Sequence record: NZ_AP023324.1
Strand: one strand, 5' to 3'
Source of the DNA: a plasmid
Length of the DNA stretch: 64,000 nucleotides
The notes under the pieces are model-generated. The model saw only the letters and a list, made by a program, of their open reading frames with translations. It made no database searches and was not told where the DNA came from. The translations under genes were made by a program, and so were the position numbers. Numbering within the stretch: position 1 is the first letter of the stretch; the number at the start of each line of letters is the position of its first letter. Shown one piece after another: positions 27,358 to 51,813 of this stretch.

Positions 27358-27486
27358 CCAACATGACCCGTACGCCCACCCCGCGCGCAAAAGGACGCCA
27401 GTCCCCGATCGCCGGCCCGCCCACAGGGCGACCTGTTCCACCTCGACAGTCCGCTGACCAGCGAGATCCGGGGCGAGCGCTCGCTG

Positions 27487-28310: not shown

Positions 28311-28328
28311 GATTCGCGGGGCGCGACC

Positions 28329-28479
28329 CAATTCATACTTGATAGCACGAATTATCGGCGTGAATTCATACTCGAAAGCACGAATGCTTCGCCGAATTCC
28401 TATCCGATAGCACGAATGACGCGCCCGAATTTTGTAATTCGGGCGGTGTTTTTGAATTCATACTCGAAAGCACGAATCG
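28329..28479. repeat. oriV-like iteron array: 4 direct copies of about 22 bp (28329, 28361, 28394 (degenerate), 28453) plus the inverted repeat GCCCGAATTttgtAATTCGGGC at 28423-28444
   Basis: Read directly from the sequence. Spacing is 32/33/59 nt. The array lies immediately 3' of repA. Confidence 0.7.
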
Positions 28480-28949
28480 TCACGGCTTACTTTGTTGGAG
28501 ATTTACTGCAAGGTTAACCCATATCGCGGGTCGAGACCTGTGAAGGCAGCATATGGGAGCGGTCGTGACCACATAAAGGAAAGCCCGGCACGAAGGCCGG
28601 GCATCCAGTACTACAGGAGCGACGTCGCCAAACGTCGATCCGGGGCATCACACACCCCCTCCTGATACGCCTGTCGCCCCTGCGGTTCAAGGATGCGCGC
28701 TTCGCGCCACGCCCTTTCTCGTCCTTTTTTGGTCCGGCCCCGGAAATAAGGGGAAGGAAGATGACGGCGTTCACCTTTGGTGAAGCGACGACGCGCGCTT
28801 GCGCAGGCCGCGGCCACGCGATCGGGGACATCCGTGCGCGTAGGCCATCGCACCGGCGCGCGTGTCCGCCGTGACAGCATCGAGGCGGGGACGTTCGAGG
28901 ACATGTTCTTCGCCACGCCGGCCAAGGGGAGTGTGACCGGCTGATCCGC

Positions 28950-29609
28950 ATGGCCCGCACCGCGCTCGATGCCGGTCGGCGGATCAAACGCGAGGCACGG
29001 GGGCAGGGCAGGGCGCTGACCGGCCCCGAACACGCGCTGGCCAGCCTGACGGCGGGGGCGGTGCGGGTCTATGAGGAGCTGTGCACGCTCGCCCGGCTCA
29101 ATGCGGGCCGTGTCTATCCCAGCTATGACCGCCGGCCGCCGCGACCGCGCTCGGCCGCGCCACCGTCGCGCGCGCGCTCAGATCTGGAGGAAGCTGGCTT
29201 CCTCGTCCGCCAGCGCCGGTTCCGCCGGGTGGAAGGCGAGGGGCCGGGGCCGCGCTGGGAACAGACCTCCAACGCCTATCGGCCGGTCGTGCCCAAGCAG
29301 CTGTTATCGCTATTACCCCGCTGGCTCCGCCCCGCCCCGGTTCCCGACGATGCCCTTCAGCATGTGGCGGAGCAGGCCGAGGAACAGGAACGGCTCAAGG
29401 CGCAACTGACCTGTCGCGAACTGGCGCAGTTCACCGTGGGGGGAGCGCTAGGCCGCGTACTGGCCCGGCTGGGCATTGCGATTGATCGACAGATGCCCGT
29501 GCGAGAGTCTCATGCCGATCCTGAACCCCTCCCCAGTTTATTTGAGAAGGAGAATAAAGCCTCCCCCTTGCCAGGTGAGACGCCCCTTAGTGGCCATGAG
29601 ACCACGTAG
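28950..29609 (+). CDS. Hypothetical protein in the plasmid-maintenance block. It is preceded by a translationally coupled small ORF (about 28757-28936) with a strong AAGGGGAAGGAAG RBS.
   Basis: 219 aa with no recognisable family. Arg-rich N-terminal text ...ALASLTAGAVRVYEELCTLARLNAGRVYPSYD suggests DNA binding (weak). Confidence 0.3.
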   Translation: MARTALDAGRRIKREARGQGRALTGPEHALASLTAGAVRVYEELCTLARLNAGRVYPSYDRRPPRPRSAAPPSRARSDLEEAGFLVRQRRFRRVEGEGPGPRWEQTSNAYRPVVPKQLLSLLPRWLRPAPVPDDALQHVAEQAEEQERLKAQLTCRELAQFTVGGALGRVLARLGIAIDRQMPVRESHADPEPLPSLFEKENKASPLPGETPLSGHETT

Positions 29610-29783
29610 AACGCCCACCGCAAACGACATAACTAGGGGAAATGACGGGAAGCGCCGGCTTCGCCGACGCCATGCTCCCTAGAAGGAGCAAGCGGATCCG
29701 TCAGCCTGTCTTTCGGCCTGTTTGGTGATGTGGAGGAGGAGAGTGGAAATAAGCCTGATCCGGCCATCATGTGCCGTTTCCTA

Positions 29784-29834
29784 CTCGACACGTCGGCCTG
29801 TCGACATGTAGTCTATATGACATGCCGACAATCG
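29784..29834. repeat. Motif copy g: CTCGACACGTCGGCCTGTCGACATGTAGTCTATATGACATGCCGACAATCG (spans the parA start)
   Basis: Read directly from the sequence. Confidence 0.7.
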
Positions 29835-30472
29835 CGATCATCAGCCAAAAGGGCGGTGCGGGAAAAACGACCTTGGCCATCCATCTTGCCGCCGCAGGAC
29901 AGGAAGTGGGACAGGTGTCGCTCATCATCGACACCGATCCCAGGGCGACCGCCAGCCAATGGGCGTCGGCGCGAGGACGCGCCCCCCGAAGTCATCGACA
30001 GCCCACCTCCACGCCTCGCCGCCAAGGTCGAACAGGCCAGGGGGCAGGGGGCCAAGCTGATCGTCATCGACACGCCGCCCCATGCCGATAGCGCCGCCCG
30101 CGCCGCAGTCGAGGCGGCCGACTGGTACTGATCCCCTGCCGTCCGAGCGCCTTCGACCTCTCGGCGATCCAGACGACCGCCAAACTGGTCCAGCTGCTGC
30201 GCAAACCAGCCTTCGTCGTGTTCACCGCCGGCAACCCCAACGCGCCGCGCGTCTATGCCGAGGCGGGCGAACTGGTCGAAAGCTATGGCACCCCGCCATG
30301 CCCCGTCCTGATCCCCGACCGGGCCGCGTACCGCCACGCCTCGGCGGAGGGGCGCACCGTCATGGAAACCGAACCGGCGGGCAAGGCGGCCGAAGAAATT
30401 CGTGAACTCTACAAGTGGACATGTCGACAACTAGACCTGCCCGTCGCTCGTTTTAAGAAGGTCCCTGCATGA
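29822..30472 (+). CDS. parA: ParA/Soj-family partition ATPase (2 frame breaks)
   Basis: MPTIAIISQKGGAGKTTLAIHLAAA (deviant Walker A)...IIDTDP...LIVIDTPPH...PSAFDLSAIQTTAKLV...IPDRAAYRHASAEGRTVME. Confidence 0.8.
30418..30435. repeat. Motif copy h: GGACATGTCGACAACTAG (3' end of parA)
   Basis: Read directly from the sequence. Confidence 0.6.
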
Positions 30473-30743
30473 GCCGCAAACCCAGCTTCGCCAATCTGCG
30501 CGATCGTACCGCGCCAGTCGCGGCGCAAGCCCATCAAACTCCGTTACTAATAGCGATGATGGAAGAGCCAGTCGTCCTGCTAGTCGAGAGGGCCGCAAAC
30601 AGATCGCTGGCTTCTTCACGCCTGAAATGTCTTTAGCAATGCATATGATGGCACGACGGCAGGGGCGAAGCCTTCAGGCGCTAATGGCAGAGGCGTTTGA
30701 CGATGTGCTGCGCAAATATGGGGAAAGCCCGGTGGGGGGATGA
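30469..30743 (+). CDS. Small ribbon-helix-helix (ParG/CopG-like) partner of ParA (one frame break)
   Basis: Its start overlaps the parA stop (ATGA). The C-terminal text is KQIAGFFTPEMSLAMHMMARRQGRSLQALMAEAFDDVLRKYG, typical of RHH centromere-binding proteins and antitoxins. Confidence 0.5.
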
Positions 30744-30761
30744 GACTGTGCCTTTTGAGAC

Positions 30762-31823
30762 AGGCTAGAGCAGATTCCGATCAGTATGCATCGTATCCGG
30801 CAGCGGCGAAGTAGTTGGCGCATTCGGCGGGCGTGAAGGTGTCGATGGCGGCACCTATGGCGCGGGACAGATCGTCGACGGTTTGTGCAGCGGCTTTGCG
30901 CAGGAGTGCTTTCAGCTTGGCGAAGGCGTTTTCGATCGGATTGAAGTCGGGCGAGTAAGGCGGAAGGAAGAGCAGCCGGCGCCCCTTGCCTCGACCGCCT
31001 CCCGCGCCGCGACGCTTTTGTGGGCGGGCAGGTTGTCCAGGATCACAACGTCGCCCCGTTTCAGCGTTGGAGCGAGTACCCGGGCAACCAGGCCTCGAAC
31101 CACGCCCCGGTCATCGGTCCGTCGATGACGAGCGGTGCGGTCATGCCCGAGAGCCGCAAGCCACCGACGAACGTGGTCGTCATCCAGTGTCCGTGCGGTA
31201 CAGCCATGCGCAGCCGTTCGCCACGTGGAGCGCGTCCATAGCGGCGTGCCATCTTCGTACTGGCACCCGTCTCATCGACGAAGACCAGCGTTTCCGGATC
31301 GAGGTCGAGCTGGCCATCGAACTAGGCCTCGCGCGCGCTCAGGACGTCGGGGCGGTCCTGTTCCTGCGCGTGGCCAGTCTTTTTTTGCGCGTATGCCCGT
31401 GACGGGCGAAGAAGCGCCACAGCGTCGATACCGCGACCGCGATCCCCTCGGCGGCCAGGCCCTCGCGCAGCTCGGCAAGAGTGATGTCGGGAGCCGCCTC
31501 GCACAGCGCCCAGATGCGCGCCGCCTTGGCCTCGGTCGTGGCCGAGCGCGTGTCACCGTCCTGCGGCTTGGCCGCTGGCTTTCCCTGATCGCGCTGAAGG
31601 GCCACCCACCTCACGGCACTGGCTGCGCTGACCCCGAACCGTGCGCGGCCGCCCGGCGTGACATGCCTCCCGAAATGGCACCAACAACCCGCTCGCGCAG
31701 GTCCATCGATAACGGCTTGCCCATCTGACCGGCCTCCCCTCGCCGGGGACGAGCATGAATCAGACTTCACTCCCTTTGGGAATCCCTCAACGATTCACAC
31801 TGATCGGATTTTGCTCTAACCTA
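30762..31823. mobile_element. IS630-family insertion sequence (about 1.06 kb) with about 22-bp imperfect terminal IRs
   Basis: IRL GGCTAGAGCAGATTCCGATCAG (30763-30784) versus the reverse complement of the right end GGTTAGAGCAAAATCCGATCAG (about 31800-31821). TA follows the right end. The internal transposase is of IS630 type. Confidence 0.7.
30785..31727 (-). CDS. IS630-family transposase (several frame breaks)
   Basis: N-terminal HTH ...FGVSAASAVRWVALQRDQGKPAAKPQDGD...TLAELREGLAAEGIAVAVSTLWRF. The DDE region reads ...VVILDNLPAHKS...LPPYSPDFNPIENAFAKLKALLRKAAAQTVDDL. Confidence 0.7.
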
Positions 31824-31964
31824 TCAGCGGCCTGAAAATGGGGAGCACGTCAACCTGCTATGACTACCGCATAATCCATTTCACTGCCTTTGCCTATTTC
31901 ACCGCTCTCGCAATCTATCTACATCGAATGGTGATTGACTTTAAATCAAGTCTTACTACCTCAA

Positions 31965-33154
31965 TCAGGTCGTAGCAATCGCATACCGAGGAAGTTCACT
32001 TTGATTATTAACAATAACTTCAGCGCGGGCAACTTCATATGCAAAATTACGCAGAAAATGACCTCGAGCAAAACGCTGTGCATTAGTGATCGCAGCCTCT
32101 GGGTCAAAGCTTGGGAGCCAAGTATCAAAGCGATTTAGTGCGTCGATCAGCGATTCTGCGGTCTGTTCATAAAAGTGAATGCCTGTCACGCCATCGATCA
32201 CTGTTTCCGTGCCGCCTCCGCGGCCGAAGACGACGACCGGACGACCAGCTGCCTGAGACTCGACCGGAATGATGCCGAAGTCTTCTTCGGCAGTGAAAAT
32301 CAGTGCGGAGGCTCGAGCATAGGCAGCCCGTAGGTCGTCGAAGCGCATCCGCGTGGTAAAGCGCACGTTTGGACCAGCTCGTGCCTTCAGCATTTTTAAC
32401 ATTGGGCCATCGCCGATGACGTGCAGTTTGCGGCCGGTTCAGTGAAGGCATCAACTGCTATATCAGGGCGCTTATAGGGAACGAGTTGGCTGATCCAGAC
32501 GCACTCGTCGCTGACATCGTCCGTTCGTTGGAACAGGTCGACATCGACTGGCGGATAGACGACGCTGGCATCACGCCCCCAGAATTTGCCGATGCGACGC
32601 CGGACAAACTGGCTATTGGCAATGATGAGGTCGGGTCGTGAGGCGCTTGAGCGGTCCCAGGCACGCATACGCGGCGCAATCAATTTCAAGTACAGCCCGG
32701 CCAGACGCCCGCTGGCAGCTCGATAGGCATGATACTGATCCCACAGATACCGCATAGGCGAATGGCAATAAGTGACGTGAATCGCGTCGGGTCGGGTGAT
32801 CACGCCTTTAGCCGGGCCAGCCTCACAGCTAATGACCAAGTCGTAGGCGCTGAGGTCGAGCGCCTCAAGCGCACCAGGCATTAGTGGGAGGTATTTCTGA
32901 TATTGTCTCCGGGCGAAGGGTAGCTTGGCAATCGCTGTCGTAAAGATACGGTGTCGCTTAATAGTCTGCGACAAGGCGGAATGATCGACAACATGGGTGA
33001 AAATGTCGGCATCCGGGTACAAGTCACAGATTCGCTCCAGTACGCGTTCACCACCGCGCATTACCACCAGCCAGTAATGGATGATGGCGACCTTGCGAGG
33101 CCTGACTGGAGCAGGAGCAGGGACGTCAGGCATCGGGGGCAGGGCGGAGGTCAT
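31965..33154 (-). CDS. GT4-family glycosyltransferase (frame break near 32400); the 3' region is AT-rich
   Basis: C-terminal text ...FTAEEDFGIIPVESQAAGRPVVVFGRGGGTETVIDGVTGIHF (the E-x7-E region). The N-terminal half reads VAIIHYWLVVMRGGERVLE. Confidence 0.7.
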
Positions 33155-33223
33155 TTATGGATATCCTGTCGAAATGAAAGCGGTAGCGGCGTCAGGAAAA
33201 GGGCGAGCTACGATCTGATAGTA

Positions 33224-34236
33224 TTACAGGCGGGGCGGCGTTTCCTGCTGGTCTAGCAGGGTCGCCTGCGCCACCCATCGCCGTCCACCTTGCCCAAGCG
33301 CGAGGCCGAAGGCCGGCAACAGGCCGAGCTGTTTCATGACGAGATAGGCTATAACCGGCGCGCCCATGCCGATCGCCGTGCACAGGACGAGATACAGCCA
33401 ACTGATGGGCGGCACGTGCAAGATTTTCATCAAAATGATTCGCGCACCAGCGCCGGCAAGAATATGCATGACGTAGATTGCCATCGACATGGTACCGATC
33501 GCCACCAGCGCGGCCACATGTTCCAGCCGCTGCGAAATCCATAGCATCACCACGATCCCACCGATAGCGGCAGGCAGCATGAGTACGGAGTTGTAGTTGC
33601 TGAAGCCATGATGATGGGCGACGGCGATGGCGGCGGCGCCCAGCAGCGTTAAGCCCGCCGCAACCCCGCCACCTATGCGTAGCAGGTCACGCAGCTTCGG
33701 ACGACCCATCGCCATTCCCGCAACGAAGAAGATCGGAAAATGTAGTAATTGATGGCCAAAATTGTCTTTCGGTAGCCATTCTCCGATCAGGAAGGCAGCC
33801 AAGGCGGGACGAAGAATAGCGGCAGTGGCAGGACGCTGGCCAGCATCATGAACAGGAATAGCGCATATAAGAACCAGAAAGGTGAAATAGGTGCCCAGGC
33901 GATGTAAAGCATTTGACGGGGGTCAAAGGCATTGTTGGTGACATGGCTGAGTACGGTCATGATGGTGCCCGACAATAGAGACCAGAGCACATAGGGATAC
34001 AGCACGGAGGCGATTTTGCTGCGTCGAAAATAGGTCATCCCTTTGCCAAGGCTGTTTGGCACGTTGAGACCGGCCAAAAACATGAACAGTGGCATATGGA
34101 ATGTGTACAGCGCGAAATCGAATAACTGCCAGCGGACATCCCGAAGCGTCCCCGCCGACACCAACCCACGCTCCATGTGGCCGAGCACGACCAGGAATAT
34201 TCCTATACCCTTCGAGGCATCCTGGGGGCACCTCAA
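33224..34236 (-). CDS. Acyltransferase-3 family membrane O-acyltransferase. Its first approximately 30 codons lie at 42058-about 42150 on the far side of the transposon.
   Basis: ...DASKGIGIFLVVLGHM...FHMPLFMFLAGL... is followed by multiple TM helices. The reading frame continues across the Tn boundary: RC of 42058-42150 gives ...LTNQPPSPQRWPTTSPQVYETATNKLSRSARYIWQ|DASKG. Confidence 0.7.
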
Positions 34237-34266
34237 GGTTTGTCATATGGACAGCGGCAGTCGGAA
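34224..34266. repeat. Tn3-family left terminal inverted repeat
   Basis: See the transposon entry; it starts with the GGGG typical of the family. Confidence 0.8.
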
Positions 34267-34370
34267 CAAATGGTCAACAAAAGCCTGAGCGTTGCCGCAA
34301 AGTATATTAAGTTTCGTGGGTTTGTGAGGTTGGACGAGTTGGAAGTTACCGGATCACCTCTCGTGATGTT

Positions 34371-35194
34371 TCACCCGCGGAGCTCGTAGTAGACGATCTG
34401 CCATCCATTCTTGGGACCGCGCCACTGGGTGATCTGAAAGCTATGGGCTTGTGCAGACCCGTCGAGGACGCGGCTACTCCACCGTAGCGTTTCATCGTAA
34501 CTGCTTCCGGACGATAACGCACCCGCTATGCGCCGAATGGGCAGCTTGGCGGGGAGCCTGCGGATGCGTCGGCCATCGTTGCCGACAAAGATAACGTCTT
34601 CGGCCACGCTTCGTCTTGGAACAGCCAACCAGTCGACCTGTTTGCCGGCCTGCTCCTGTCGCAAAACAGACGCGATCTCTTTCGCATCGCTAACGGCTTG
34701 GATTTGGAGCTGTTCATTGGTGAGTTTTGCCGAGCACTCAGGTTCGATCGCTTGTAAACTTTCTGCCGCTAATGCCTTCGATCCATCCCGACGATAGTCG
34801 TCGATTTCCAGCGCCACCCCTCAGCACTGTTCCGCCAAAGCGTCTTATATGATCCAACTCGATTTCCGCCATCGTACAGCCCGCCGATAACAACTGCCGA
34901 CCCGCTCGGATCACAGGACGGAAAGACAAGTTCGGGTCTGCGCTCGGCATGGCTCTCGACACTCATCATTGTGAGCCACCACCTTCGGCTACTCTCGGCT
35001 GCTTGCAACATGCTGGCCACAGATGGAGAGCGCGCGGTTTCGGGCGCATGTTGTATTGGCCAGGGGTCGCTTTGTGGACCGAAACTGCGTGCCGCTGCCT
35101 GACGGCCACTGGCAAGTACAGCTTCCGAGTAGGCCCGCTCCGCCTCCAGCGCGGAATTCGGCGAACTTGCCGCTAGTAGAAGCGCGAAGATCAT
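34371..35194 (-). CDS. Secreted hypothetical protein with two NTF2-like/DUF4440-like halves (one frame break near 34800); transposon cargo
   Basis: Signal peptide MIFALLLAASSPNSA. Each half ends in a DUF4440-like text: ...VGSYKTLWRNSAEGWRWKS and ...SFQITQWRGPKNGWQIVYYEL. Confidence 0.4.
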
Positions 35195-35214
35195 GGCGAA
35201 ATCCTACTCCTCAA

Positions 35215-35818
35215 TCAACGTGTCGAGCGATGTACGGGCATCTGCGCCGGATGGTTGAGCGCCCGATAGAGCGTGGCATGATGACACTTCAGCAGCTTCG
35301 CCGCTTCGCGCACCGATGTGCCTTCGCCGACGAGACGCTGTCCGAGCGCGATCTGGTCCGGAGTGAGCTTGGGCTTACGCCCGAACTTCACGCCGCGCGC
35401 CATGGCTGCCGCGCGGCCGGAACTGGTACGCTGGTGGATCAGCTCGCGCTCGAACTCCGCGATGCCGGCGAACACGGTGAGCACCATGCGTCCCGCAGGC
35501 GTGGTCGTGTCGGCCCGGGCTCGGCGAGCGAGCGCAGCCCGCTCCCGCCTCGTTCAGCTTCTCGGCGATGTCGAGCAGGTCGCGCGTCGACCGCGCTAGG
35601 CGATCGAGCCGGGTGACCACAACCACGTCGTCGTCGCGCAGCTGCTCCAGCATCCGGTCGAGTTCCGGTCGGGCGCGCTTGGCGCCGGACACCTTCTCCT
35701 CGAATGTCCGCCGGCATCCGGCCGCCTTCAGTGCCGTCTTTTGAAGCGTGAGATCCTGATCGTCGGTAGATACGCGCGCATAGCCGAGGAGCATGTCGCA
35801 GATGTGCATTGGAACACG
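35215..35818 (-). CDS. Serine recombinase (resolvase/invertase family); frame break near 35480
   Basis: MLLGYARVSTDDQDLTLQKTALKAAGC...VVVVTRLDRLARSTRDLLDI...VLTVFAGIAEFERELIHQRTSSGRAAAMARGVKFGRKPKLT...C-terminal HTH. Confidence 0.8.
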
Positions 35819-35929
35819 GCTGATTAGCAACAGACATTTGCGACAGCGTCCGCCCTCGTGGCGTGACCGGTTGTAAACGCTCGCGCTAAGTGGCGGCATT
35901 CTGATCGCGCTATTTGTCGGCGAGCGTCG

Positions 35930-36506
35930 CTACGCGGCTACCGGCTTGGTCTCGGCCGATCGCACATAGGCGTAGAGTGTTGGCTTGGAGATGCCGAGCA
36001 TCGAGCAAATCTTGGCGATCGGCATCGTGTTCTCGTGGTAGAGCCTGACGGCGGTCGCGCTTGTCCTTGCCGAGTGCGGCCGGCCGGCCACCCTTCTTGC
36101 CGCGAGCGCGGGCTGCGGTGAGACCGGCACGGGTCCGCTCGCGGATCAGGTTGCGCTCGAACTCCGCCAATGCCCCGAACAGGTGGAAGGTAAGCTTGCC
36201 CGACGTGGTGGTCGTGTCGATCGCCTCGTGCAGGCTCAGCAGCCCGACCTTTTCCTCGTCGAGGTAGGTCATCCATCCGATCAGATCACGGAGCGAGCGG
36301 CCGAGCCTGTCGAGGCGCCAGACCACCAGTGTGTCGCCGGCGCGAAGCAGCTCCTTCACCTTTTCCAATCCAGGGCGAGCGGCAGTCGCCCCGGAGGCCT
36401 TGTCGGTGATGACCTTCTCGCAGCCGGCAGCCTTCAGCGCATCACGCTGGAGGTCCGGTTCTGCTCGGCGGTCGATACGCGGGCGTAACCGATTTTCATG
36501 CGTAGG
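35930..36506 (-). CDS. Second serine recombinase (resolvase family); 2 frame breaks
   Basis: (M)KIGYARVSTAEQN...LQRDALKAAGCEKVITDKASG...LVVWRLDRLGRSLRDLI...LFGALAEFERNLIRERTRAGL. The C-terminal HTH is recovered as ...AVRLYHENTMPIAKICSMLGISKPTLYAYV. Confidence 0.75.
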
Positions 36507-36611
36507 GCCGGTGGCGCCCGATCGGGCGCGGTTTGGGAAGAAAGTCGTCATCGGCAGGTCTATGTTGCCCTAGTTTTCTTTACCGGGTAGATTTACGTCG
36601 AACAGGCCGGT

Positions 36612-38080
36612 TTGGCAACGCGAGCGGACTCGCATGGCGATGGGCAGGCAAATCTCCGTTTTCCTTACCTGCGACACGGACCGTCGGCGGTGACGCATCC
36701 GGCGCTTGTCCCGCCGCTGGCGATCGAGCGCTACCGCGTCCTTGAACCGCACCTCGCCGATGGCATCCCGCTCGCGGACCTCGCCCGCACCGGCACGCTG
36801 AGCGAGCGGACGTTGCAGCGCTGGCTCGGGCGCTACCGTGCCGAAGGACTTGCCGGTCTCGCGCGTCTGCCGCGCAACGATCGGGGCAGGCTGCACCTGC
36901 CGGAACATCTGGTCGAACTGACCCGCACTCTCGCCACCAAGCGCCCGCGACCCCCGGTCGCCGCCATTCACCGAAAGGTGCAGGAACTCGCCATCGCGCA
37001 TGGACACCGAACCCCCAGCTATGCGGCCGTCGCGCGTGTCGTCAGGGCGATACCGGCAAGCCAGATCGCCGCAGCCTCCGATCCGGCCGTCTACCGCGAC
37101 CAGCACGAGCTAGTGCATCGGCGCGAAGCCGCGACCTCGAACGAGATGTGGCAGGCCGATCATACCGTTCTCGACATTCTCGTGCTCGATGATGCCGGAA
37201 CCCCGGTGCGTCCTTGGCTGACCGTCATCGTTGACGATCACAGCCGAGCCATCGCCGGTTACTTCCTCAGCCTCGATGCCCCCAGTGCCCTCAACACGGC
37301 GCTCGCCTTGCGGCAGGCGATCTGGCGCAAGCCCAATCCCGAATGGATCGTCAGCGGCATTCCCGAACAGCTTTACGTCGACAACGGCTCGGATTTCATC
37401 TCCGAGCATATCGAGCAGGCGTGCATCGCCCTCAAAATCCGCCTCATCCATTCGCTGCCGGGGCGTCCTCGCGGGCGCGGCAAGATCGAGCGGCTGTTCC
37501 GCACCATCAACGACATGTTCCTGCCCGACCTGCCCGGCCACCTGATCGCGGGCAAGCCGCTGTCGGCGCCAGTGCTCACGCTCGACGAGCTGCGCGCCCG
37601 CTTCGAGGCGTTCGTGTGCGGCGTCTATCATCGTCGCCCGCATGGCAGCACCGGCGAACCGCCGATCACGCGCTGGCAGAAGGGCGGGTTCCTGCCCGCA
37701 ATGCCCGACAGCCTTGAACAGCTCGACATGCTGCTCGTGCACGTGCCCAAGCCCCGTAAAGTGCTGCGCGACGGCATCCGTCTGATGGGCAGGCGCTATG
37801 TCGAACCCACGCTCGCGGCCTTCGTCGGCGAGCAGGTCGAGGCGGTCTATGACCCCGCGACCTGACCGAGATCCACGTCTACCACCAGGGGCCGGTTCGT
37901 CTGCCGTGCGCTCAGCTCCGAGCACGCTGGGCACCCGTCGTTGCGCGCGATCCAGCGCGCCCGGCGCGGCGCGAAGGAGCGCGACAAGCAGGTGCCTGCC
38001 CCCACGGAGACCTTCGATGGCGACCAAGAGGATACGGCTTCCCGGCCCACCACCTACCGAGGGCTCCGGCTCTACGCCGC
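36612..38080 (+). CDS. TniA-like DDE transposase (Tn5053/Tn402 TniA or TnsB-type integrase core); the start and C-terminus are uncertain
   Basis: MWQADHTVLDILVLDDAGTPVRPWLTVIVDDHSRAIAGYF...YVDNGSDFISEHIEQA...RPRGRGKIERLFRTIN. It is followed by a TniB-like ATPase. Confidence 0.65.
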
Positions 38081-38893
38081 TGACGATTGAGTTCCTGGTC
38101 GAGCAGCCGTTCACGGCGACCCGCGAACATGCCCGGTTCGTCGAGTTTGCCGAAGCCTGCGCGCACTACCGCTATATCGGCGTGTGTCATGGCCGGCCGG
38201 GCGTCGGAAAGACGCGATCGGCGCGCGAGTTTTCCAGCTTCCCCGACCGGGGAATATGCCGCGCTCCGTCCCATTGCCGCGCTCCTTGGCGAAAAGGTCG
38301 CTCGCTGCCGCGCCGTCTTCTACACCGTGTCGGTCAGCAACACGCCCAAGACGATCGACGCGGTGTTGGGCCTCAACCTCATTAAGCTGGGCTATGCCCG
38401 GCTGACGGTCGCGGGCGGCTCGCAGGACGAAATCACCCATGACGCCGCCCGCATCGCCTGCCCCCTCGTCATCGTCGACGAGGCCGACCGCCTGACCATA
38501 AAGTCGCTCGAACATCTCCGCGACATGGCCGATCGCCACGGCTTCGGGCTGATCCTGATGGGTATGCCGGGCTTGGAGAAGCGCCTCGCCCGCTATGCCC
38601 AGCTCTACTCGCGGATCGGCTTCGTCCACGAGTTCAAACCGCTTACCGAGACCGAAATGCGGCTGCTGCTCGCGACCCACGCCGGCGATTTCGGGATCAG
38701 CTTCGACCCGGCCCAACTCGACGCGATCGAAGCGCAGGCAGCCGTGATCCGCATCACGCGCGGCAACTTCCGGCTCATGGAGCGCCTGTTCGCGCAGATG
38801 CGGCGGATCATGACCCTCAACCGCGTCGAGGAGGTCACCGCTGACATCGTTCAGGCCGCGCGCGATTGCCTCGTCATCGGACCCGGCAACTGA
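38016..38893 (+). CDS. TniB-like AAA+ ATPase (transposition helper); frame break near 38240
   Basis: Walker A ...YRYIGVCHGRPGVGKTRSARE. Walker B region LVIVDEADRLTIKSLEHLRDMADRHGFGLILMGMPGLEKRLARY. Confidence 0.65.
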
Positions 38894-39030
38894 CAAATAG
38901 CGCGATCAGAACGCCGCCATTTAGCGCGAGCGTTTACAACCGGTCAGGGCCGCTGTCACGAAACTTGAGAGTTACGCGACACCTCGCACGTGTCGGCCAT
39001 AAACTATACGCTCCCGGACAGGGGTGATCG

Positions 39031-41989
39031 ATGGCCAGACGCGATCTGTTAACGGGCGACGAACGCCGCGCGTTGTTCGGCGTGCCCCTCGACCATGCCT
39101 CGCTCGCCAAGCATTACACGGTTGCCGATGAGGACCGGCCACTGATCGAAGCGAAGCGCGGCGACGCCAACCGGCTCGGCTTCGCGCTGCACCTCGCCCT
39201 GCTGCGTCATCCCGGCTTCGGCATACGCCACGACGATGTCGTCCCCGATTTTCTGATCCGGCACCCGCGCAACTCGACATCGCGCCCACAGCGTTCGAGG
39301 GCTACGCGCATCGCGCCCAGACCCGGCTCGAACACGCACGGGAGGCGATGGAGCGTTTGCGCCTGCGCGCGTTCGAGGCGGCCGACGTCCCCGGCGCGCT
39401 CGGCGCAGCCACCCGCGCGGCGGAAGCGACCGAACGGGGCAAGCCGATCGCCGCGGCAGTGCTGGGCCATTTGCGTGCTGCCCGGATCGTTCTGCCCGCG
39501 CCCGCCCGTATCGAGCGGATCGGGGTGGCGGGGCGCGCCATGGCGCGCCGCCTCGCGGCCGACACGCTGGTCGATGCGCTTGCTCCGGAGCAGGTGACGG
39601 GGCTGGATGCGTTGCTGATCGTGGACCAGGATCGCAGCACGACGCCGCTCGCGTGGCTGCGCGACACGTCGGACAGCCCGACCGCGCGCAATCTCGCCGG
39701 CATTCTCGCCCGGCTCGCGCACGTGCGCCGGCTCGGGCTCGACCCGGGCATGGCCGGCCGCATCCACGAGCACCGCTTCGAGCAGCTCGTGCGCGAAGGC
39801 CACGTCGCGCCCGCGTTCCTCCTGTCCGACTACTCGCTCCGCAGAAGGCGCGCGACACTCGCCGCAGCCGTCATCGACACGGAAGCGCGGCTCGCGGACG
39901 CCGCGATCGAGATGTTCGGCAAGCAGACCGGCCTCCTGTTCGCCAGGGCGGGGCCGCGCAGAAGCGCGGCATCGAGGCGACCACACGCGACGTGAACCGG
40001 CTCATGCGGCTGCTGGGCGCCACGGTCGGCGCACTCCGGGTCGCGCGCGAGGACGGGTTGGACGTCTGGGCGGCGCTCGACGACGGGGTGGGCTGGACGA
40101 GGCTTCTGGACGCCGAGAGCGAGGCGACCGCGATCGCCGACCTGACTCGCGACGAGCCGCTGATCCGCGCGGCGGGGCGCTACATGACGATGCGGCGCTA
40201 CGCGCCCGCGTTTTTTGACGCGTTCCGGTTCAAGGCGGCAGGCTCGCGCGACGGCGTGCTCGGCGCGATCAAGGTCGTGCGCGCGCTGAACGCGACCGGG
40301 CGGCGAGACGTACCGGCCGATGCGCCCATGCCGTTTTCCAGAAAATGGAAGGCGGCGATCACCGAGGGCGGCGTCATCGACCGCCGTCGCTACGAAACCG
40401 CCACGGTCGCGACCGTGCGCGAGCGGCTCCAATCGGGCGACCTGTGGGTGGAGGGTACGCGCGAACACCTGCGCTTCGACAGCTATATGCTCCCGCCCGG
40501 CAAAGCGGCCGAGATCGCGCTCACGCTGCCGTTCGACACCGACGTCGGCCGCTACTTGGAGGGGCGCGCCAGGCTGCTCGACTGGCGGTTGCGCCGGTTC
40601 GCAGGCTCGCTGAAGCGCGGCACGCTCGACGGCGTGGAGCTGCGGGGCGGTAACCTCAGGGTCAGCCCGCTCGCGGCCGTAACGCCCGCTGCGGCCGACA
40701 GGCTGGACGCGGCCGTCGACCGGCTCATGCCCCGCGTGCGCATCACCGAGCTGCTCGCCGAGGTGGAAGCCCGCACCGGGTTCCTGTGCGCATTTCCGGA
40801 ACTGCGCTCGGGCCGCGCCCACTCCAACCCGCAGGCCGTGCTCGCCGCGATCGGCAGACGCGACGAACCTCGGCATCGAGCGCATGGCCAACGCCAGCCG
40901 GGCGTCACCTACGCCCAGCTCGCCTGGACGCATGGCTGGTACGTATCGGAAGAGAATTACGCGGCAGGGCTGCGCCATCTGGTGGACGCGCAAGCCGCGC
41001 TGCCGCTCACGCGCGTGTGGGGCGACGGCACCGCGTCGAGCTCGGACGGGCAGTTCTTCCGCTCGGGCAGGCGGGGCGCGGCCGGCAGCACCAACGCGCG
41101 CTACGACCGGGAGCCGGGGCAGAAGATCTACGCCCATGTCGCCGATACCTACGCGCCCTACCATGTCCGGCTGATCTCGGCGACCGCGGCGGAGGCGCCC
41201 TATGTGCTGGACGGGCTGGTCGCGCACGGCTGCGGCATCGAACCCGCGACCCACTATGCCGATACGGGCGGCGCGTCCGACCACGTGTTCGCGCTCGCGC
41301 ACCTACTCGGCTTCCGGTTCGTGCCCCGCCTGCGCGATCTAGCCGATCGCCGGCTCGGCCTGTTCCCGGGCACGGCCCGCCCCGAGGCGCTCGCGAAGCT
41401 GATCGGGCGCCCGTTCAACATCGCTGCCATCCGCGAAAGCTGGGACGAGATCGTCCGGCTCGCCGCGTCCGTGAAGGCCGGCGTGGTGCTACCGTCGGTC
41501 ATGCTGAAGAAGCTGGCCGCGTACCGTCGCCAGAACCGGCTCGACTTCGCGCTCCAGGAGCTGGGCCGGATCGAGCGCACCCTGTTCACGCTCGACTGGC
41601 TAGAATCCAGGGCGCTCCGCCAGCAGTGTCAGGCTGGGCTCAACAAGGGCGAGGCGCGTCACACGCTCGCCCAAGCCGTGTTCGTCCACAAACAGGGCCG
41701 CCTGCGCGATCCGCAGTTCGAGAACCAGGCGCTGAAAGCGTCCGGGCTGACGCTGGTCACCGCCGCGATCGTGTACTGGAACACGCTTTACATGGGCCGC
41801 GCCGTCGAGCATCTGCGCGCCAGCGGCGAGCCCGCGCCCGACGAGCTGCTCGCCCATGTAGCCCCGCTAGGCTGGCGACACATCAGCCTGACCGGCGATT
41901 ACCTCTGGCAAAACGCCGCTGCCGAGCTCGATCAAGACGGCTACCGCGCACTCAACATCGCCGGCGGACCCGGAGCCAAGGTGGCCTGA
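39031..41989 (+). CDS. tnpA: Tn3-family transposase TnpA (about 985 aa); 2 frame breaks (about 39290 and about 39960)
   Basis: N-terminal DUF4158-like MARRDLLTGDERRALFGVPLDHASLAKHYTVADEDRPLIEAKRGDANRLGFALHLALLRHPG. The long C-terminal DDE region reads ...TGGASDHVFALAHLLGFRFVPRLRDL...LVTAAIVYWNTLYMGRAV. Confidence 0.85.
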
Positions 41990-42009
41990 GCCGCCCTGTT
42001 CGCTACCTG

Positions 42010-42052
42010 TTCAGCTTACCGCTGTCCGTGTCACAAACCTTGAGGTGCTCCC
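42010..42052. repeat. Tn3-family right terminal inverted repeat
   Basis: Reverse complement matches IRL at about 36 of 43 positions. Confidence 0.8.
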
Positions 42053-42274
42053 ATCCTGCCATATGTAGCGGGCCGACGATCGGCTGAGTTTGTTGGTTGC
42101 TGTTTCGTATACCTGCGGTGAGGTTGTTGGCCACCTCTGCGGCGAGGGGGCTGGTTCGTCAATCATCTAGAAATCTTTCTGACATTCGCACGATGCTAGC
42201 CCGGCTTTGATGCGGGGGATAGACGAAGGCCAGTCTGCCCGCCCATTCCTGATGATAGCGTGTCACCCGCAGGC

Positions 42275-43400
42275 TTAGCGACGATCCCCGGTATTTTCCA
42301 ATGGGCTTTGGGGAAGATGGGATGTACTGCAGGCAATAGCCTCAATCGCGTCGGCTAACGTATCAGCCGATGTTATCCAACTGAACCGGGTCAGTTGAGC
42401 ATGTCCCACAGCGATCCGCTGCGCGCGCCATGCCTCGTCCTCCGCCGCACGCTGCATCCATCGTGCCAGCGCTCGATCGTCATGCGGATCAAAATATTCG
42501 GCTGCATCGCCACAGGTTTCCCTGGACGGCCTGCGCCGTACTAGCCAGTACCGGGCAATCGTTCGCCATTGCCTCCAAGGGAGGAATACCAAATCCTTCG
42601 TACAGGCTAGGAAAGATGAGCGCGCGGGCCGAACGCATCAACCCGGCAACTTCGGCATCGTCCAGTCTGCCCGGCAGAATGAGTCCTGGCCCCTTGGGTG
42701 GAAGATGGCCGTGTCCGAACACCGACCCGTCTAACCGTCCGACCGCGACGAGCCGGATGGGTGAGGGCTGCAACCGCGCCAGGGCGCGAATGGCGACGGC
42801 TAGATTTTTGTTAGGGGCAATATTGCCAAGGATCAGGAAATAGGGGGTGTTTTCCAAATGAAGACGATCGACGATCTTCATATCAGGTGTGATGGAAAGG
42901 TGTTCCGCGCCGTTCTTGGCAACTATGATCTGTTGACTAGGCACGCGGAGCACTTCGGCCAGCTCGCGCTGTGAAAATTGCGATACCGTCGCCAAGTGCG
43001 CGCGCCGGGCCAGCAGACGATCGATCGTATTATGCACCCAAGCATAGGTCTTTCCGAAATTCTCCGGGTGCCGCTGTACCGCAGCGTCGTGTATCACCAC
43101 AAGCTGGCGGCGCAACGTAACCGGCCCGGTCGCACCCAAGCACAAAGCGGCCCCCCTGCGCGCTGCCCAAGCAAATTCCAGCTGATCCCAGACATGCCCG
43201 CCGCGTCTCCCGACGACCCGTTGTTCGATATGCCGCAATCCGGCATCGCGCGCACCGTGCGGGGTAAGTATGACGTAAGGGTTGGCCGCCCGGCCTGCGC
43301 CTACGCGCTGGTCGAGGCGCGGACGATCTCGTTGGCATAGCGTTGCACGCCGCTCAACGTCTGGGTCAGGAAACGGCCGTTAATATAGATGGTGCGCCCG
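42275..43400 (-). CDS. GT4-family glycosyltransferase (frame break near 42540; N-terminus uncertain)
   Basis: ...FILGNIAPNKNLAVAIRA...IFPSLYEGFGIPPLEAMANDCPVLAS... Confidence 0.6.
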
Positions 43401-43554
43401 GTCGTCATCCCGTCCCCTGTGCATTGAAAGCTGGCGATATACCCGTCCGCATACCTTGGCGATGCCGCTCACCGCCGCATAGTCCGGTGGTGCGGCGGGT
43501 CAACCCATCAGGATTCCGTGCGCACCCGTAGCAGGGCCACGCACGCGGACGTAA

Positions 43555-44990
43555 TTATCGCGGTCGTGCCGGCGAGGGGAGGTTCTGACCGTTAAAGTGA
43601 AACTGCCTCCAGGACGTCCGCTTGAGGTCAATGTCGCCGCCCAAGGCCTCTCCCGGCGCGTCCGTCAGTCCCACCAGATCAATATGCAACCAAGCAAAGT
43701 GCCGCGCGCCGTCGCCATGTATATTGTCGGTCAGGCGTGGGCGCGCCATCCGGGTGTCGGTTGCCGTCAGGCGTTCGTAGCTGTGCGTACCAGTCATGCG
43801 TGCTGACAGGATGAAGGGAACGCCGTCGCATTCCTGAATGTCGATGAACCCCGAACAGTCGCGCCCACCCAAAAGCGTAGCATAGCCAGCGGCATGGGGC
43901 CCGCGAATATGATCGAGCTTTAGGGCATAGCGAATGCGGTTGAGCTGCGCGCTGTTGCTGTCGAGTGCGCAAGCCGCCCGATCACCCATGCCGATCACGT
44001 GTCCGGCGATCTCGCCGTCAGAGACATCCTGCACGCTGCTGGAGATTCCCAAGCGGGCGGGGCGGTCACGGCCGCTCAGCAGGATGATCGGCTGGGCGAA
44101 GTCGCGGGCCAACCCAATGCCTGTGACGCATTGCGAAGCAGTAAAATCGCGAATCCACCAGTCGCGCACCCCGAACGTATCAAAGGATCCTCGCTGCACA
44201 CATAGATGGCAGCCGCTGAGGACCGCGAGATACGTGGGCGCAGATGGTGGATGGTTTGGCCGCCTACGATCGACAGGCCGCGCGCGTGGGCATCAGCGAC
44301 CACTAGATCTTTGGTCGCGATGTTGCGGCACGTCCGACCGTCGCCAAAATAGCTGACGACCGCGAACCCGTCGTCACCCGAGGTGAAGACGCTGCAGTTC
44401 GTGAAGGACAGGTCCTCAGACCCGTGGGTGACATGGATACCGTCGGCGCGCGTGTCTTCAACTCGCAGCCCGGCGACGCTGCCGTCGTGTGCACCGAAGA
44501 ACATTGCGCCCGATCCCGCAAACCCCTTGGCAGTCCCATCGGCATCGATGCGTACGTTAGAGATGCTGAAACCCGATGCGGTGACGACCAGCCCGCAATG
44601 CGTCAATTGAGTGCCACGTTTTGTGCTAGTGCCCGTCAGCCTGACGTTGCGTAGCGCCGTCCCTTTTCCAGATAAGAACACCGTGCCCTGATCCGGCGAG
44701 GTCGCGCGCAGCGTGCACCCGCGCCCGTCGAACGCAATGCCGTCCAGCCGCAACGGACCCGTATGGGCATAGACCGCCGGGCTTCGCCCAGGATCGTACC
44801 GATCCCTTGCGCCTTGGCCTGTTCGACCGCCGCGTTGATCGCGCCGGTCTGGTCGCGAGTGCGATCCGATACGATGCCGAAAGAGGCAAGCGTCCGGGTA
44901 GCCTGTGGCCGCCCCGGCCTGATCAGTCAGATCGCGGCCCGGGCTGGGATGGCCATCAGAAGGCGTTGTCATGCCGGATGACGAAGATCG
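43555..44990 (-). CDS. Right-handed parallel beta-helix (pectin-lyase-fold) protein, a candidate polysaccharide lyase or depolymerase; frame break near 44150
   Basis: Repetitive beta-helix coil text: ...NVRLTGTSTKRGTQLTHCGLVVTASGFSISNVRIDADGTAKGFAGSGAMFFGAHDGSVAGLRVEDTRADGIHVTHGSEDLSFTNCSVFTSGDDGFAVVSY. Confidence 0.5.
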
Positions 44991-45017
44991 TGCGGAAAAT
45001 GATCCAGATATCGCGGT

Positions 45018-46347
45018 TCATCGACCAGTTGCGCAAATATTCGGGTCGGATGCTAGACGGTTGGATAGGTCACTGGCTAAGATCGTCGCCCCGCGAAAGC
45101 CACGAATCTGGGCTAGACCCGTCACACCGGGCTTGACCACGTGGCGGTGCCGATAACGATCGTCGATTTCCCAGTACAGGCGTTCGGCGGCCTTGGCCGA
45201 CAGGGCGTGCGGGCGCGGTCCAACGATGCTCATCTCGCCACGCAGCACGTTAAGCAACTGCGGAAGTTCGTCGATACTATTGCGCCGAATGAATTGTCCC
45301 ACCCGCGTCACTCGGCTGTCATTGCGGGCGGTCAGAACGCTAGCCGACGGGTCGCACTTGTCGGTATGCATGCTGCGGAACTTGAACATCATGAACAGAA
45401 CGTTGTCTCGGCCGATGCGCTGTTGCCGGAACATAACCGGGCCGGGCGATTCTAGCTTGATTGCGATGGCCACCGCCAGCAGCACCGGCCCGAGCAGGGT
45501 CAGCGCTAACAGCGAGACCACAATGTCGAACGCGCGCTTAATAATTCGAGCGCGCAGGTGCAGTGGGCCCGTTGAGACAACCAGCGTACGCAGGCCGCGA
45601 TGTTCGCTGATCCCCAGAACGCCAATCTGATCCACCTCTGGTGCGATGATCTGCCCGTCGACCGCCATGCATTTCAAAACATGTGACCATGAGGGTACGC
45701 GATCGTCGTTACAGGCCACAAGTACCCGGTCGGCCTTACCGATCAGCTTCGCCAAGCGGTCATATTCCATCGGATCGTCAGTGAGAGGGTCGAACCCGAT
45801 TGAATTCGTATTGATCACCTTATCCTGTGGCGCGGCTTCCGGATATATTGTCGACGAGCACGATCTGGCTGAACACCTGATCATTCAACCGGCGCAGGAT
45901 CATGCGTCCGACGAATAGCCGTTCGACAATTAGTAAGGTTATTGAGCAAAAGGTGCCGCTCAAAAAATCACGCGCGAGAAATTCTCGCCTACCTTGAAAG
46001 AATAGGCAACGATCAGCGTCACCGCAGCTGCGAGACCAGAGCGCGTACGGCCTTGAACGCGCCGACGCGCGGGTCGCCGAGCGTGGGATTACTATAGGCG
46101 CCGTTAATACCAGCAAAGCCAGGAACGTCGGAATGATCACCGACATCATGGTTACGCCATGCGATGCAAGCCAGTCACCGATATAGAGCTTGTTGACGAC
46201 GAAGAAGCTAGCCGCGACAGTGCATATATCGACGACGGTCAGCGCAAGGTAATAGCGGATCCTACGATATTCCATGTTCTGGATGACGGGCATGTCAAAA
46301 ATATCCGCGTTGGCCCGATCGTGCGTCCCACTGATGTGCGTGGTCAT
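45018..46347 (-). CDS. Polyprenyl-phosphate glycosyl-1-phosphate transferase (WbaP/ExoY-type bacterial sugar transferase); frame break near 45850
   Basis: C-terminal catalytic text FDIVVSLLALTLLGPVLLAVAIAIKLESPGPVMFRQQRIGRDNVLFMMFKFRSMHTD...IDELPQLLNVLRGEMSIVGPRPH. N-terminal TM helices are present. Confidence 0.75.
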
Positions 46348-46499
46348 TTCATAATCGGCAAGGATGCGCTGGTGTTGCGGGCGAAAGATGACGTCCGGGC
46401 AAGATGAATGTGAAGTTTCACCACATGGTCCGGGAAAGGCAGTGCTGTCTACGCCCCGGATCTCGGTATCTGTCGCGGCGTATGACAAAACGACAATGC

Positions 46500-47774
46500 T
46501 AATGGCCTGCTGGGCAGAATTTGGCAAGCGATATGCAGACATGAATGGGGCCGGGCCCGTCGATCGTTTCAGGTGGTGGCATGCAGTCGCTGACGGATCA
46601 TCCGGCGGACTACCAGCGTGATCGTCACACTGAGGGCCGTGTTTTGAAAAAGCACCGCTAGCGCCACCGTTTCCATCACCCCTAGCATCTGGGTGAGCGA
46701 CAACGTTAGGCAGAAGGTCGCGAAACCGATGCCCCCCCCGATCACCCACCAGCGTTCCTGATGTAACGCGGTTACAGCCAAACCGAAGGGTGAAGCGGCA
46801 CAGGTCACCATTGCGCTGAGGAACAGCGGCGTTGCGGGCAACCGGGATCACCAGCGTCTTCCATCCCAGCATCCCCATCACCACTACCCCGACGATTGCA
46901 GAGGGGATGTAGATCAGGGCGAACAGGGCCGACAGGCGGCCGTTCTGGCGGATGATCTTTACTACCATGGGCATGTCATTGTTTGCTGCGGCAGTGATGA
47001 TCCGCGGGGAGTAGGCAATCGCCAGCCCGTGCAGGAACACCGAAATCGCCGAGGACAGCTTGCGCACCACCTCGAACGTTGCGACGCGCTGCGGCGCCAA
47101 GCAAGGTCAGCGCCAGCGTCGGCATATTTTCAGTCGCCGAGCTGATGATGCCGCTAAACAGGAAGGTACGGCTTTCCAGCCAGAGTAGGCGGATCTGTCG
47201 TCGGTCAATGGTCATCGCTCCCGCCGGCGCGACCCGCGCAGCATGAGCGAGAGCAGGGCGGGTGTCATATAAGCGAGCGCCATAATAATCGCGATCGCCT
47301 GCCAGCGCAGCGGCCATCGCATCAGGGCGCTGACGACAAAGCTGGCCGAGGTGATTGAGGGGGGCAGGATGTAGAACAGCAGAACCGAGGTCATCTGCCG
47401 CTCGTGTGCGATCTGGCGGACCTCCTCCAGCTTGGTAAGCAGGATTGAAAGCACCGCTAGCGCGAAGATGAGCGCCCCGTTGGCGAGGCGAACCCTGTCC
47501 CAGCCAGCCCGGCCATGACCATGCCGACGATCGACATGAAGACCATAACGATATGCGACGCAGGTATCTGCGCACGATCGGGAAGCAGCAGTGCACGCAT
47601 ATAGCCTTGGCTGGCATATTGCGCCACGGGCCCGACGATCATCATCGCGAGCGCAAAGGAGGTGGCGCCAAGGCCATATTGCCGTGCGTCGAGGAAAATC
47701 GCGGCGGTCAGCGACGGGAAGAAGCCGACGCCCCCGGCGATCAGGCGCAGGAACAGCAGGCGGGACACCTTCAT
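46500..47774 (-). CDS. Wzx-type polysaccharide flippase (polysaccharide biosynthesis protein family); heavily frame-disrupted (at least 4 fragments)
   Basis: The fragments MKVSRLLFLRLIAGGVGFFPSLTAAIFLDARQYGLGATSFALAMMIVGP..., ...LSALFALIYIPSAIVGVVVMGMLGWKTLVIPVA and ...TLSLTQMLGVMETVALAVLFQNTALSV tile the region on one strand. Confidence 0.5.
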
Positions 47775-47901
47775 CGCGCAGCATCATCCAGTGGGGCTAC
47801 CATCTCGGCTGTGACCTGACGCCATGTCCGGGGATGGTCTGGCCAGCGGCGTTCGCATGCCAGTGCCCGCTCGACCGCACGCAACAGCGATGCGTCATCG
47901 C

Positions 47902-48870: not shown

Positions 48871-48872
48871 CT

Positions 48873-51717: not shown

Positions 51718-51813
51718 GCAGCCGTAGCCGATAAGACGGTTTCGTTTCGGATTGGCATTGGCTACACGGTGCCCTAATGCGTTTTTAAATCTTTCACTTC
51801 CTCCATACGCTCG

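Follow-up and report, generated by a model that had tools for sequence, protein, structure and literature searches.

Evidence for a recent insertion of a composite Tn3-family transposon into an acyltransferase gene of a Sphingomonas plasmid polysaccharide cluster

The insertion and its empty site

The 64,000-nucleotide stretch of plasmid DNA analysed here (sequence record NZ_AP023324.1; the whole stretch is referred to as the window) carries a composite Tn3-family transposon of 7,829 bp, located at positions 34224-42052 between two copies of the pentanucleotide ATCCT, which splits the gene for a putative polysaccharide acyltransferase. The insertion is genuine but an ordinary Tn3-family event in a published genome; there is more to learn from the transposon nested in it, apparently a res hunter, and from the recurrent sequencing errors. 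The reading as a whole—a recent insertion of the composite element splitting the acyltransferase gene, with the frameshifts seen in and around it being base-calling errors—is considered highly probable.

The ends of the element start with GGGGGCACCTCAAGGTTTGT on the left and, in reverse complement, with GGGAGCACCTCAAGGTTTGT on the right, the junctions being formed by CGAGGCATCCT adjoining GGGGGCACC and by GGTGCTCCC adjoining ATCCTGCCAT. The GGGG-type inverted repeats are imperfect (19 of 20, 31 of 38 and 36 of 44 positions match), and the inverted-repeat 20-mer occurs within the window only at the two ends of the element, zero occurrences being expected from 100 shuffles. An earlier note on this DNA had proposed a 7,829-bp Tn3-family segment flanked by an ATCCT duplication; the boundaries were reproduced, and the assignment to the family is borne out by the Tn3-family transposase, the GGGG-type repeats and a 5-bp duplication that is single-copy in empty sites. 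The two 43-bp repeats described there are indeed of the GGGG type and present at both ends, but they are not clean over 43 bp, as the matches given above show. The term "textbook" insertion suits the standard features of the family, but not the composite nature of the element, since a second transposon is nested in its res region.

When the element and one ATCCT are deleted in silico, a minus-strand frame ...SRSSARYIWQ continuing into DASKGIGIFLVVLGHM... is restored. The restored gene aligns gap-free and colinearly with the gene for the intact 369-aa protein on the plasmid unnamed2 of S. paucimobilis FDAARGOS_908, 1101 of 1110 nt being identical, with a single AGGAT at gene nt 110-114. The continuous acyltransferase frame claimed earlier was thus recovered, except that the peptide quoted for it was one S short; concerning the limits of the two fragments, the larger part does lie at 34223-33224, whereas the 5' fragment comprises 38 codons starting from 42166 and not about 30 starting from 42150. 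A frameshift in the 3' part near position 33798 coincides with a CCTGG site and represents a sequencing error; after its repair, the sole difference from the intact P0131 allele is GTCCTGGCC, which is read as GTCCCGCC in the window.

Evidence for the event comes from plasmids retaining the empty site. In the FDAARGOS_908 plasmid (NZ_CP065671.1), window positions 42053-61947 correspond to 1-21247 and positions 12000-34223 to 21243-47472, so that the two flanks are contiguous and have one ATCCT in common at 21243-21247 of that record; the intact 369-aa acyltransferase WP_082052577.1 is annotated at this very site. A protein 100% identical to the intact acyltransferase is encoded by NBRC 13935 (L007), and the uninterrupted acyltransferase, with the MIDEP... 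N-terminus of the window itself, is also encoded by 14 Logan contigs built from public sequencing runs. One of these contigs, L092 (SRR32872055), crosses the empty site with two substitutions in 12.5 kb of the flanks, a single one in each part (10.1 and 2.4 kb), all the other differences being indels. In the scan of the genome collection, a close homologue of the acyltransferase was present in one species representative only. Because the empty site is found in sister plasmids with essentially identical backbones, these comparisons strongly support a real insertion of very young evolutionary age, in agreement with what the earlier note had claimed. The coordinates of all the features concerned are summarized in Table 1.

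Table 1 Features of the insertion, the split gene and its downstream neighbour (window coordinates)
Feature	Position	Strand	Remarks
ATCCT, left copy of the target duplication	34219-34223	.	occurs once at the empty site in both L004 and L092
ATCCT, right copy of the target duplication	42053-42057	.	
Left terminal inverted repeat	34224-34267	+	same in the independent copies L001, L002, L093 and L094
Right terminal inverted repeat	42009-42052	-	
Acyltransferase, 5' fragment	42053-42166	-	ATG at 42166; 38 codons, MIDEP...ARYIWQD; matches the N-terminus of intact P0131, P0130 and P0132
Acyltransferase, 3' part, codons 38-369	33224-34223	-	PF01757 on both ORF (open reading frame) pieces; 99% identical to the WP_082052577.1 gene and to P0131
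GT4 glycosyltransferase, 396 aa, last gene of the array	31965-33154	-	69 nt downstream of the acyltransferase; Pfam matches of the intact homologue: Glyco_transf_4 and Glycos_transf_1
Passenger gene, 274 aa	34371-35194	-	= WP_126014483.1 in L001 and L002; split by a 1-nt homopolymer deletion at 34807
tnpR, serine resolvase, 193 aa	35215-35794	-	PF00239 and HTH_7; two one-nt deletions in the window
res region, tnpR-proximal part	35795-35871	.	ends in ACCGGT 35866-35871; compared with the uninterrupted 164-bp intergenic region of L001
Nested transposon	35872-38938	+	3,067 bp; TGTAAACG...CGTTTACA termini; 47-nt inverted repeats
Nested serine resolvase	~35930-36499	-	element coordinates 59-631
Nested TnsB/TniA-like transposase, 466 aa	~36690-38090	+	rve and Mu-transpos_C (Pfam); element coordinates 823-2223
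Nested TnsC/TniB-like ATPase, 292 aa	~38017-38893	+	AAA_22 (Pfam); element coordinates 2150-3028
res region, tnpA-proximal part	38939-39030	.	starts with the second ACCGGT, 38939-38944; 28-bp palindromic unit TGTC(A/G)CGAAACTTGAGAGTTACGCGACA
tnpA, Tn3-family transposase	39031-41989	+	988 aa when intact; 5 indels in the window copy, 4 of them at CCWGG; DUF4158 and DDE_Tnp_Tn3

Source plasmid and base-calling errors

The window is almost certainly the plasmid pKira_1 of Sphingomonas paucimobilis strain Kira, as judged from its proteins. The ORFs at 33224-33802 (192 aa) and 33787-34236 (149 aa) match exactly WP_182926904.1 and WP_269474369.1, respectively, which share a protein cluster with BCI72886.1 and BCI72887.1 (SPKIRA_37160 and SPKIRA_37170), encoded on a 79,575-bp plasmid. 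The genome of the strain Kira (NBRC 114974; BioProject PRJNA646346) was obtained from Oxford Nanopore Technologies (ONT) R9.4.1 reads with an N50 of 20.7 kb, assembled with Canu and polished by Pilon using 75-bp Illumina reads, the duplicated ends having been trimmed by hand (PMC7883840).

A 14.3-kb part of the window (27684-42052) was compared with the near-identical references L001, L002 and L003. The 31 indels recorded there are distributed among CCWGG motifs (17), homopolymers of at least three residues (9) and other places (5), and half of the 32 substitutions (16) are located inside CCWGG. Altogether, 24 of the 43 CCWGG sites are altered, by double substitutions as well as by indels, the latter being found also in C/G homopolymers; approximately half of all the differences are concentrated in CCWGG positions, which cover only about 1.5% of the sequence. 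Filling the indels from the references yields full-length frames free of internal stops for tnpA, tnpR, the 274-aa gene, the three nested genes, the acyltransferase and GT4. The pattern at CCWGG would correspond to the errors known for the R9.4.1 chemistry at Dcm-type methylated sites. Given the clustering at CCWGG and homopolymers, the full-length genes obtained after repair and the ONT R9.4.1 assembly, the frameshifts in tnpA, tnpR, the acyltransferase, GT4 and repA are to be read as Nanopore base-calling errors, not decay. Such errors typify R9.4.1 data without polishing, and the majority of the plasmid's genes acquire spurious frameshifts from them.

It could be argued that the insertion is old and that tnpA, tnpR, the acyltransferase and GT4 have truly been turned into pseudogenes by their frameshifts, nearly all the genes in and around the element being split into several ORFs. 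This explanation is, however, extremely improbable in the light of the distribution of the indels and the proportion of the altered CCWGG sites described above, the intactness of every gene after filling the indels of an R9.4.1-based assembly, and the mere two or so substitutions in 12.5 kb separating the window from a sister plasmid; moreover, the same defect affects genes far from the element, such as repA. It should be noted that a homologue of the RepA (RPA-family) replication initiator is located at 27379-28309 on the plus strand, split over two frames in the window. In the genome announcement, repA was listed as absent from pKira_1 (PMC7883840), probably owing to the artefactual frameshift.

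The Tn3-family carrier

The outer element, with the nested transposon set aside, covers 4.76 kb in the window and consists of the inverted repeat, a 274-aa orphan gene, tnpR, res, tnpA and the second inverted repeat; its uninterrupted form in L001 has 4,768 bp. The Pfam domain DDE_Tnp_Tn3 (PF01526) is recognized on the tnpA pieces of the window with 419 bits, DUF4158 being found too, and the intact TnpA copy (99% identical) scores 923.5 bits against a cut-off of 500 with NF033527, the NCBIfam equivalog model for Tn3. The protein matches the Tn4430 TnpA in the PDB from end to end (E 1e-166), while it is approximately 40% identical to the named groups TnAs1, TnAs3 and ISPa38; the nearest relative is Tn4430 by structure search and the latter three groups by sequence. 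The TnpR, after the repair of indels, exhibits zero amino-acid differences from WP_007406331.1. In the tnpR-tnpA intergenic region, now split by the nested element, there are repeated GTCGC-type inverted half-sites, which would represent the res subsites. The 274-aa product, the sole passenger of the transposon, possesses a hydrophobic N-terminus, is 100% conserved in other copies and yielded zero matches in Pfam, NCBIfam and PADLOC.

With regard to its layout, the carrier resembles Tn3/Tn1000-type elements in the divergent tnpR-res-tnpA arrangement and the transposase of about 990 residues with DUF4158 and DDE_Tnp_Tn3, as well as in the GGGG-type repeats of about 38 bp, the 5-bp duplication, the serine resolvase with a putative intergenic res region and the small passenger load. 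It differs from the named groups by the level of TnpA identity given above, by the orphan 274-aa passenger and by the res interrupted by a transposon. The plasmid collection contains copies of at least 99% identity in four records, of which those inspected are Sphingomonas plasmids, and the literature searches returned no published name for either the outer or the nested element, only general papers on res hunters and Tn7-like transposons. The carrier appears to be an unnamed Tn3-family element restricted to sphingomonads.

The nested transposon

The 3,067-bp element interrupting the res region is flanked on both sides by the 6-bp duplication ACCGGT, and each of its 47-nt inverted repeats contains two TCGCGCTA(A/T) motifs. 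Its transposase matches the TnsB of a type V-K CRISPR-associated transposon (CAST) in the PDB (E 2e-43) and the TnsB model of PADLOC (E 6.5e-46), whereas the ATPase matches the PADLOC model for TnsC only weakly (E 7.6e-05). No TniQ is present in the element, its three genes filling the 3,067 bp with no space for a fourth one. The element is found, at 99.5% identity, in more than 25 sphingomonad plasmids.

Two further composite copies offer a comparison. The copy in L002 has the same ends as that of the window and the target duplication TTCCA. The other one is in the same strain, on pKira_2 (L091, NZ_AP023325.1; 3000-10836), inside the gene for the coupling protein of a type IV secretion system; a shortened G run obscures its duplication, which is probably TATCG. 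In both L002 and pKira_2, the insertion point of the nested element is shifted by 11-13 bp within the tnpR-tnpA intergenic region; the element has the opposite orientation there and lies between copies of the 7-bp CCTCGTG. An inversion between the 47-nt repeats was considered as the source of the opposite orientation and was ruled out, since both the insertion points and the duplications differ (ACCGGT versus CCTCGTG). In FDAARGOS_881, the nested element is flanked by the 6-bp GAACGG beside another recombinase gene. There are thus three independent insertions, each adjoining a serine recombinase gene and two of them in the same tnpR-tnpA intergenic region, a distribution that fits the behaviour of a res-site hunter. 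In several sphingomonad plasmids (L087-L089), the 3-kb element has an identical left flank (genes for an aspartyl protease, a helix-turn-helix regulator and a cation transporter) and differing right flanks, without a duplication; this pattern suggests an exchange of flanks by res-mediated recombination.

The presence of the second copy in the same strain raises the question of an assembly artefact, i.e. that the pKira_2 copy was misplaced into pKira_1 by the long-read assembler or that the insertion is confined to a minor fraction of the plasmid molecules. Errors are evident in the assembly, which included manual trimming of duplicated ends (PMC7883840). The window copy nevertheless has its nested element at another position and in the opposite orientation, with ACCGGT instead of CCTCGTG, so it is a physically distinct copy and not a mis-assembled duplicate of that on pKira_2. 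Together with the exact 5-bp duplication at the junctions, single-copy in the empty site, and a read N50 well over the 7.8 kb of the element (PMC7883840), this makes the artefact very improbable, although heteroplasmy of the plasmid is conceivable.

As for the order of the two events, the plain 4.76-kb transposon may have entered the acyltransferase first, its res region being invaded by the 3,067-bp element only later, within the Kira lineage and from a donor such as the copy on pKira_2. Alternatively, the composite moved as a unit. The stepwise order is given a chance slightly below even. The ACCGGT configuration was seen in no other record of the plasmid collection (none covering at least 80% of the query), the plain form does exist (L001), the nested element has struck res regions independently at least three times, and a source copy was available in the same cell on pKira_2. 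The sequence itself, however, gives no ordering of the two events, and composites can move as units: pKira_2 and a plasmid of S. naphthae share the other composite form, 99.4% identical, at different sites.

Among the systems described previously, Tn6603 and Tn1013 are Tn3-family carriers in which res hunters of the Tn5053/Tn402 family are nested, and Tn5053-family elements generate 5-bp duplications and prefer one orientation with respect to the resolvase gene that they target (PMC7765201). The present case is similar to Tn6603 and Tn1013 in that TniA/TniB-type transposons have entered the res region of a small cryptic Tn3-family carrier repeatedly, on independent occasions, and the nested composite occupies several genomic sites (PMC7765201); the nested element here differs from those hunters in lacking both TniQ and cargo. 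The nested element is like the Tn5053/Tn402 transposons in encoding TniA (TnsB-like) and TniB (TnsC-like) and in the insertion in or near res. Owing to its 6-7-bp duplications, the lack of TniQ and no preference of orientation, both orientations being found in the same res region, it falls outside the Tn5053 family.

Another relevant transposon is the staphylococcal Tn552, a three-gene module without TniQ that encodes the transposase p480, the ATP-binding p271 and the resolvase BinL; it has TGT...ACA termini and repeated subterminal sites, produces 6-7-bp duplications and inserts into the res sites of resolvase genes. The nested element resembles it in its architecture—transposase, ATPase and serine resolvase with no TniQ—and in the 6-7-bp duplications, and seemingly also in the type of its termini, the repeated subterminal motifs and the entry into res, but it differs by having no bla cargo, by its 47-nt terminal repeats compared with those of about 116 bp, and by the alphaproteobacterial host. 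It should be pointed out that this likeness concerns general features of Tn552, whereas the best PDB and PADLOC matches are TnsB and TnsC of the V-K CAST.

Other insertions in sister plasmids

The carrier occurs as one copy per plasmid, at differing sites in sister plasmids, an indirect hint of the cointegrate-based replicative transposition and the target immunity that would be expected of the family. In the contigs L093-L095 (SRR1173335, SRR1062937 and SRR1049735), the left inverted repeat abuts position 13138/13139, equivalent to 31197/31198 of the window, where the window itself is uninterrupted at 31198; these runs have the intact acyltransferase, with the transposon 3 kb away on an otherwise identical plasmid. 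L095 exhibits the same junction, with the initial G run of the repeat shorter by one G. Tn3-family transposition leaves the donor copy in place, and an independent acquisition of the element by each of the two plasmid lineages is hence most likely. The copy in L001 lacks a clean 5-bp duplication, being flanked by AATAA and TAAAG, probably due to a later rearrangement.

The contig L003 (JGI metagenome 3300022693) is 99.5% identical to positions 27684-34185 of the window and ends in an IS256-family terminus (L003 1-143), which abuts window position 34185/34186, i.e. in the same acyltransferase gene, 38 bp from the point of the Tn3-family insertion. It had been considered a candidate for an empty site, based on a 99% protein match, and was ruled out as such since the contig ends in the IS256 terminus 38 bp inside the gene. 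The two independent hits on the acyltransferase may be a matter of chance amid heavy traffic of insertion sequences or, alternatively, of selection.

Regarding that traffic, L092 contains at 12489-14890 two IS110-family transposase genes where the window (31846/31382) has approximately 460 bp, and the FDAARGOS_908 plasmid harbours IS630 and IS5 copies at the same spot. The region downstream of GT4 reads, from these plasmids, as a hot spot of insertion sequences.

Consequences for the polysaccharide cluster

The intact homologue of the split gene product scores 100.4 bits with the AT3 family PF01757 (cut-off 31; residues 36-329). In an alignment of 13 sequences including the truncated window ORF P0127, the arginine R33 is nearly invariant among the 12 sequences covering it, while D38 and H52 are conserved without exception. 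On the reference plasmid, the gene for the acyltransferase is number seven of eight in a same-strand array that runs in the order glycosyltransferase, GumK_N-type glycosyltransferase, hypothetical, priming Bac_transf, hypothetical, GT4, acyltransferase and GT4, and adjoins Wzy_C, Wza-like and GumC/Wzc-like genes. This location inside a Wzx/Wzy-type cluster confirms that the split gene belongs to an exopolysaccharide locus, as had been noted earlier, and supports a putative action of the acyltransferase on a polysaccharide. Close relatives, with more than 55% identity, occur only in this plasmid lineage of S. paucimobilis and in a few contigs from metagenomes. The protein, a putative carbohydrate O-acyltransferase, is like those AT3 O-acyltransferases that have no fused SGNH domain (the type of NolL, ExoZ, GumF/GumG and Oac) with respect to PF01757, the invariant His of the first transmembrane segment and the polysaccharide cluster; its homologues are labelled as fucose 4-O-acetylase-like.

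The insertion likely inactivates the acyltransferase, as the gene is deprived of its promoter side and start codon and of 37 codons, R33 among them; most of these codons represent a non-conserved leader. The polysaccharide would most likely lose one acyl decoration. Polarity on the downstream GT4 gene, which differs from that of L092 by a single 1-nt deletion and is full-length after repair, is plausible too, and it may be partial, because tnpR and the orphan gene point toward GT4 with no terminator-like structure between them.

Several observations weigh against complete loss of function or strong polarity. The 147 bp that lead from the orphan gene to the left inverted repeat contain no terminator-like site, and the polarity on GT4 could accordingly be weak; the scan of 33100-35300 for promoters and terminators gave one hit for each, no more than in shuffled sequences. 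Of the 369 codons, 332 remain in the 3' fragment, together with almost all of the Pfam domain (profile position 5 onwards), and a TTG within the left inverted repeat serves as the start of the RefSeq ORF P0127, so that some residual acyltransferase activity is possible. It should also be kept in mind that the consequence for the polysaccharide is a prediction, the substrate and the acyl group being putative, and that the almost certain identity with pKira_1 is based on the exact protein matches together with the genome announcement (PMC7883840).

These observations form the core of a milder scenario, in which transcripts of tnpR and the orphan gene, which share their strand with the acyltransferase and GT4, would exit through the left inverted repeat and give rise to an active truncated acyltransferase as well as to GT4; in addition, many homologues begin only about five residues before R33. 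The nearly invariant R33 is, however, missing from the 3' fragment, the TTG in the inverted repeat is preceded by no Shine-Dalgarno-like sequence, and the promoter-like match is at chance level. The mild phenotype is thus judged unlikely, and inactivation of the acyltransferase is preferred.

Concluding remarks

In the favoured mechanism, the DDE transposase TnpA would act on the terminal repeats of about 38 bp, the target—codon 37/38 of the seventh gene of the array, coding for a membrane O-acyltransferase of the AT3 family—would be cut with a stagger of 5 bp, and the repair would duplicate ATCCT. The res region of the carrier would have been hit separately by the 3,067-bp transposon of the Tn7 superfamily, with its 6-bp duplication. 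GT4 would be cut off from the transcription of the operon, while read-through from tnpR and the orphan gene may persist.

Two further proposals, doubtful when taken jointly, are that the nested element is a TniQ-free res hunter and that the hits on the acyltransferase reflect selection for the loss of acylation. According to the former, the target may be chosen via the resolvase-res complex alone, in either orientation, with 6-7-bp duplications and no cargo. According to the latter, two elements within 38 bp in near-identical plasmids (Kira and the metagenome 3300022693) could point to selection for acylation loss in the laboratory-reagent and clinical niches in which S. paucimobilis is met.

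For users of the genome, the sequence of pKira_1 retains systematic errors at CCWGG and in homopolymers, and its apparent pseudogenes, repA included, should not be taken as biology. For the strain Kira, the plasmid-encoded polysaccharide is predicted to be devoid of one acyl decoration and possibly also of one sugar, if GT4 is silenced. As to the transposons, the nested element would provide a natural case of a TniQ-free res hunter repeatedly striking one res region and, if that reading is true, it would extend the behaviour of the Tn552 type to alphaproteobacterial plasmids.

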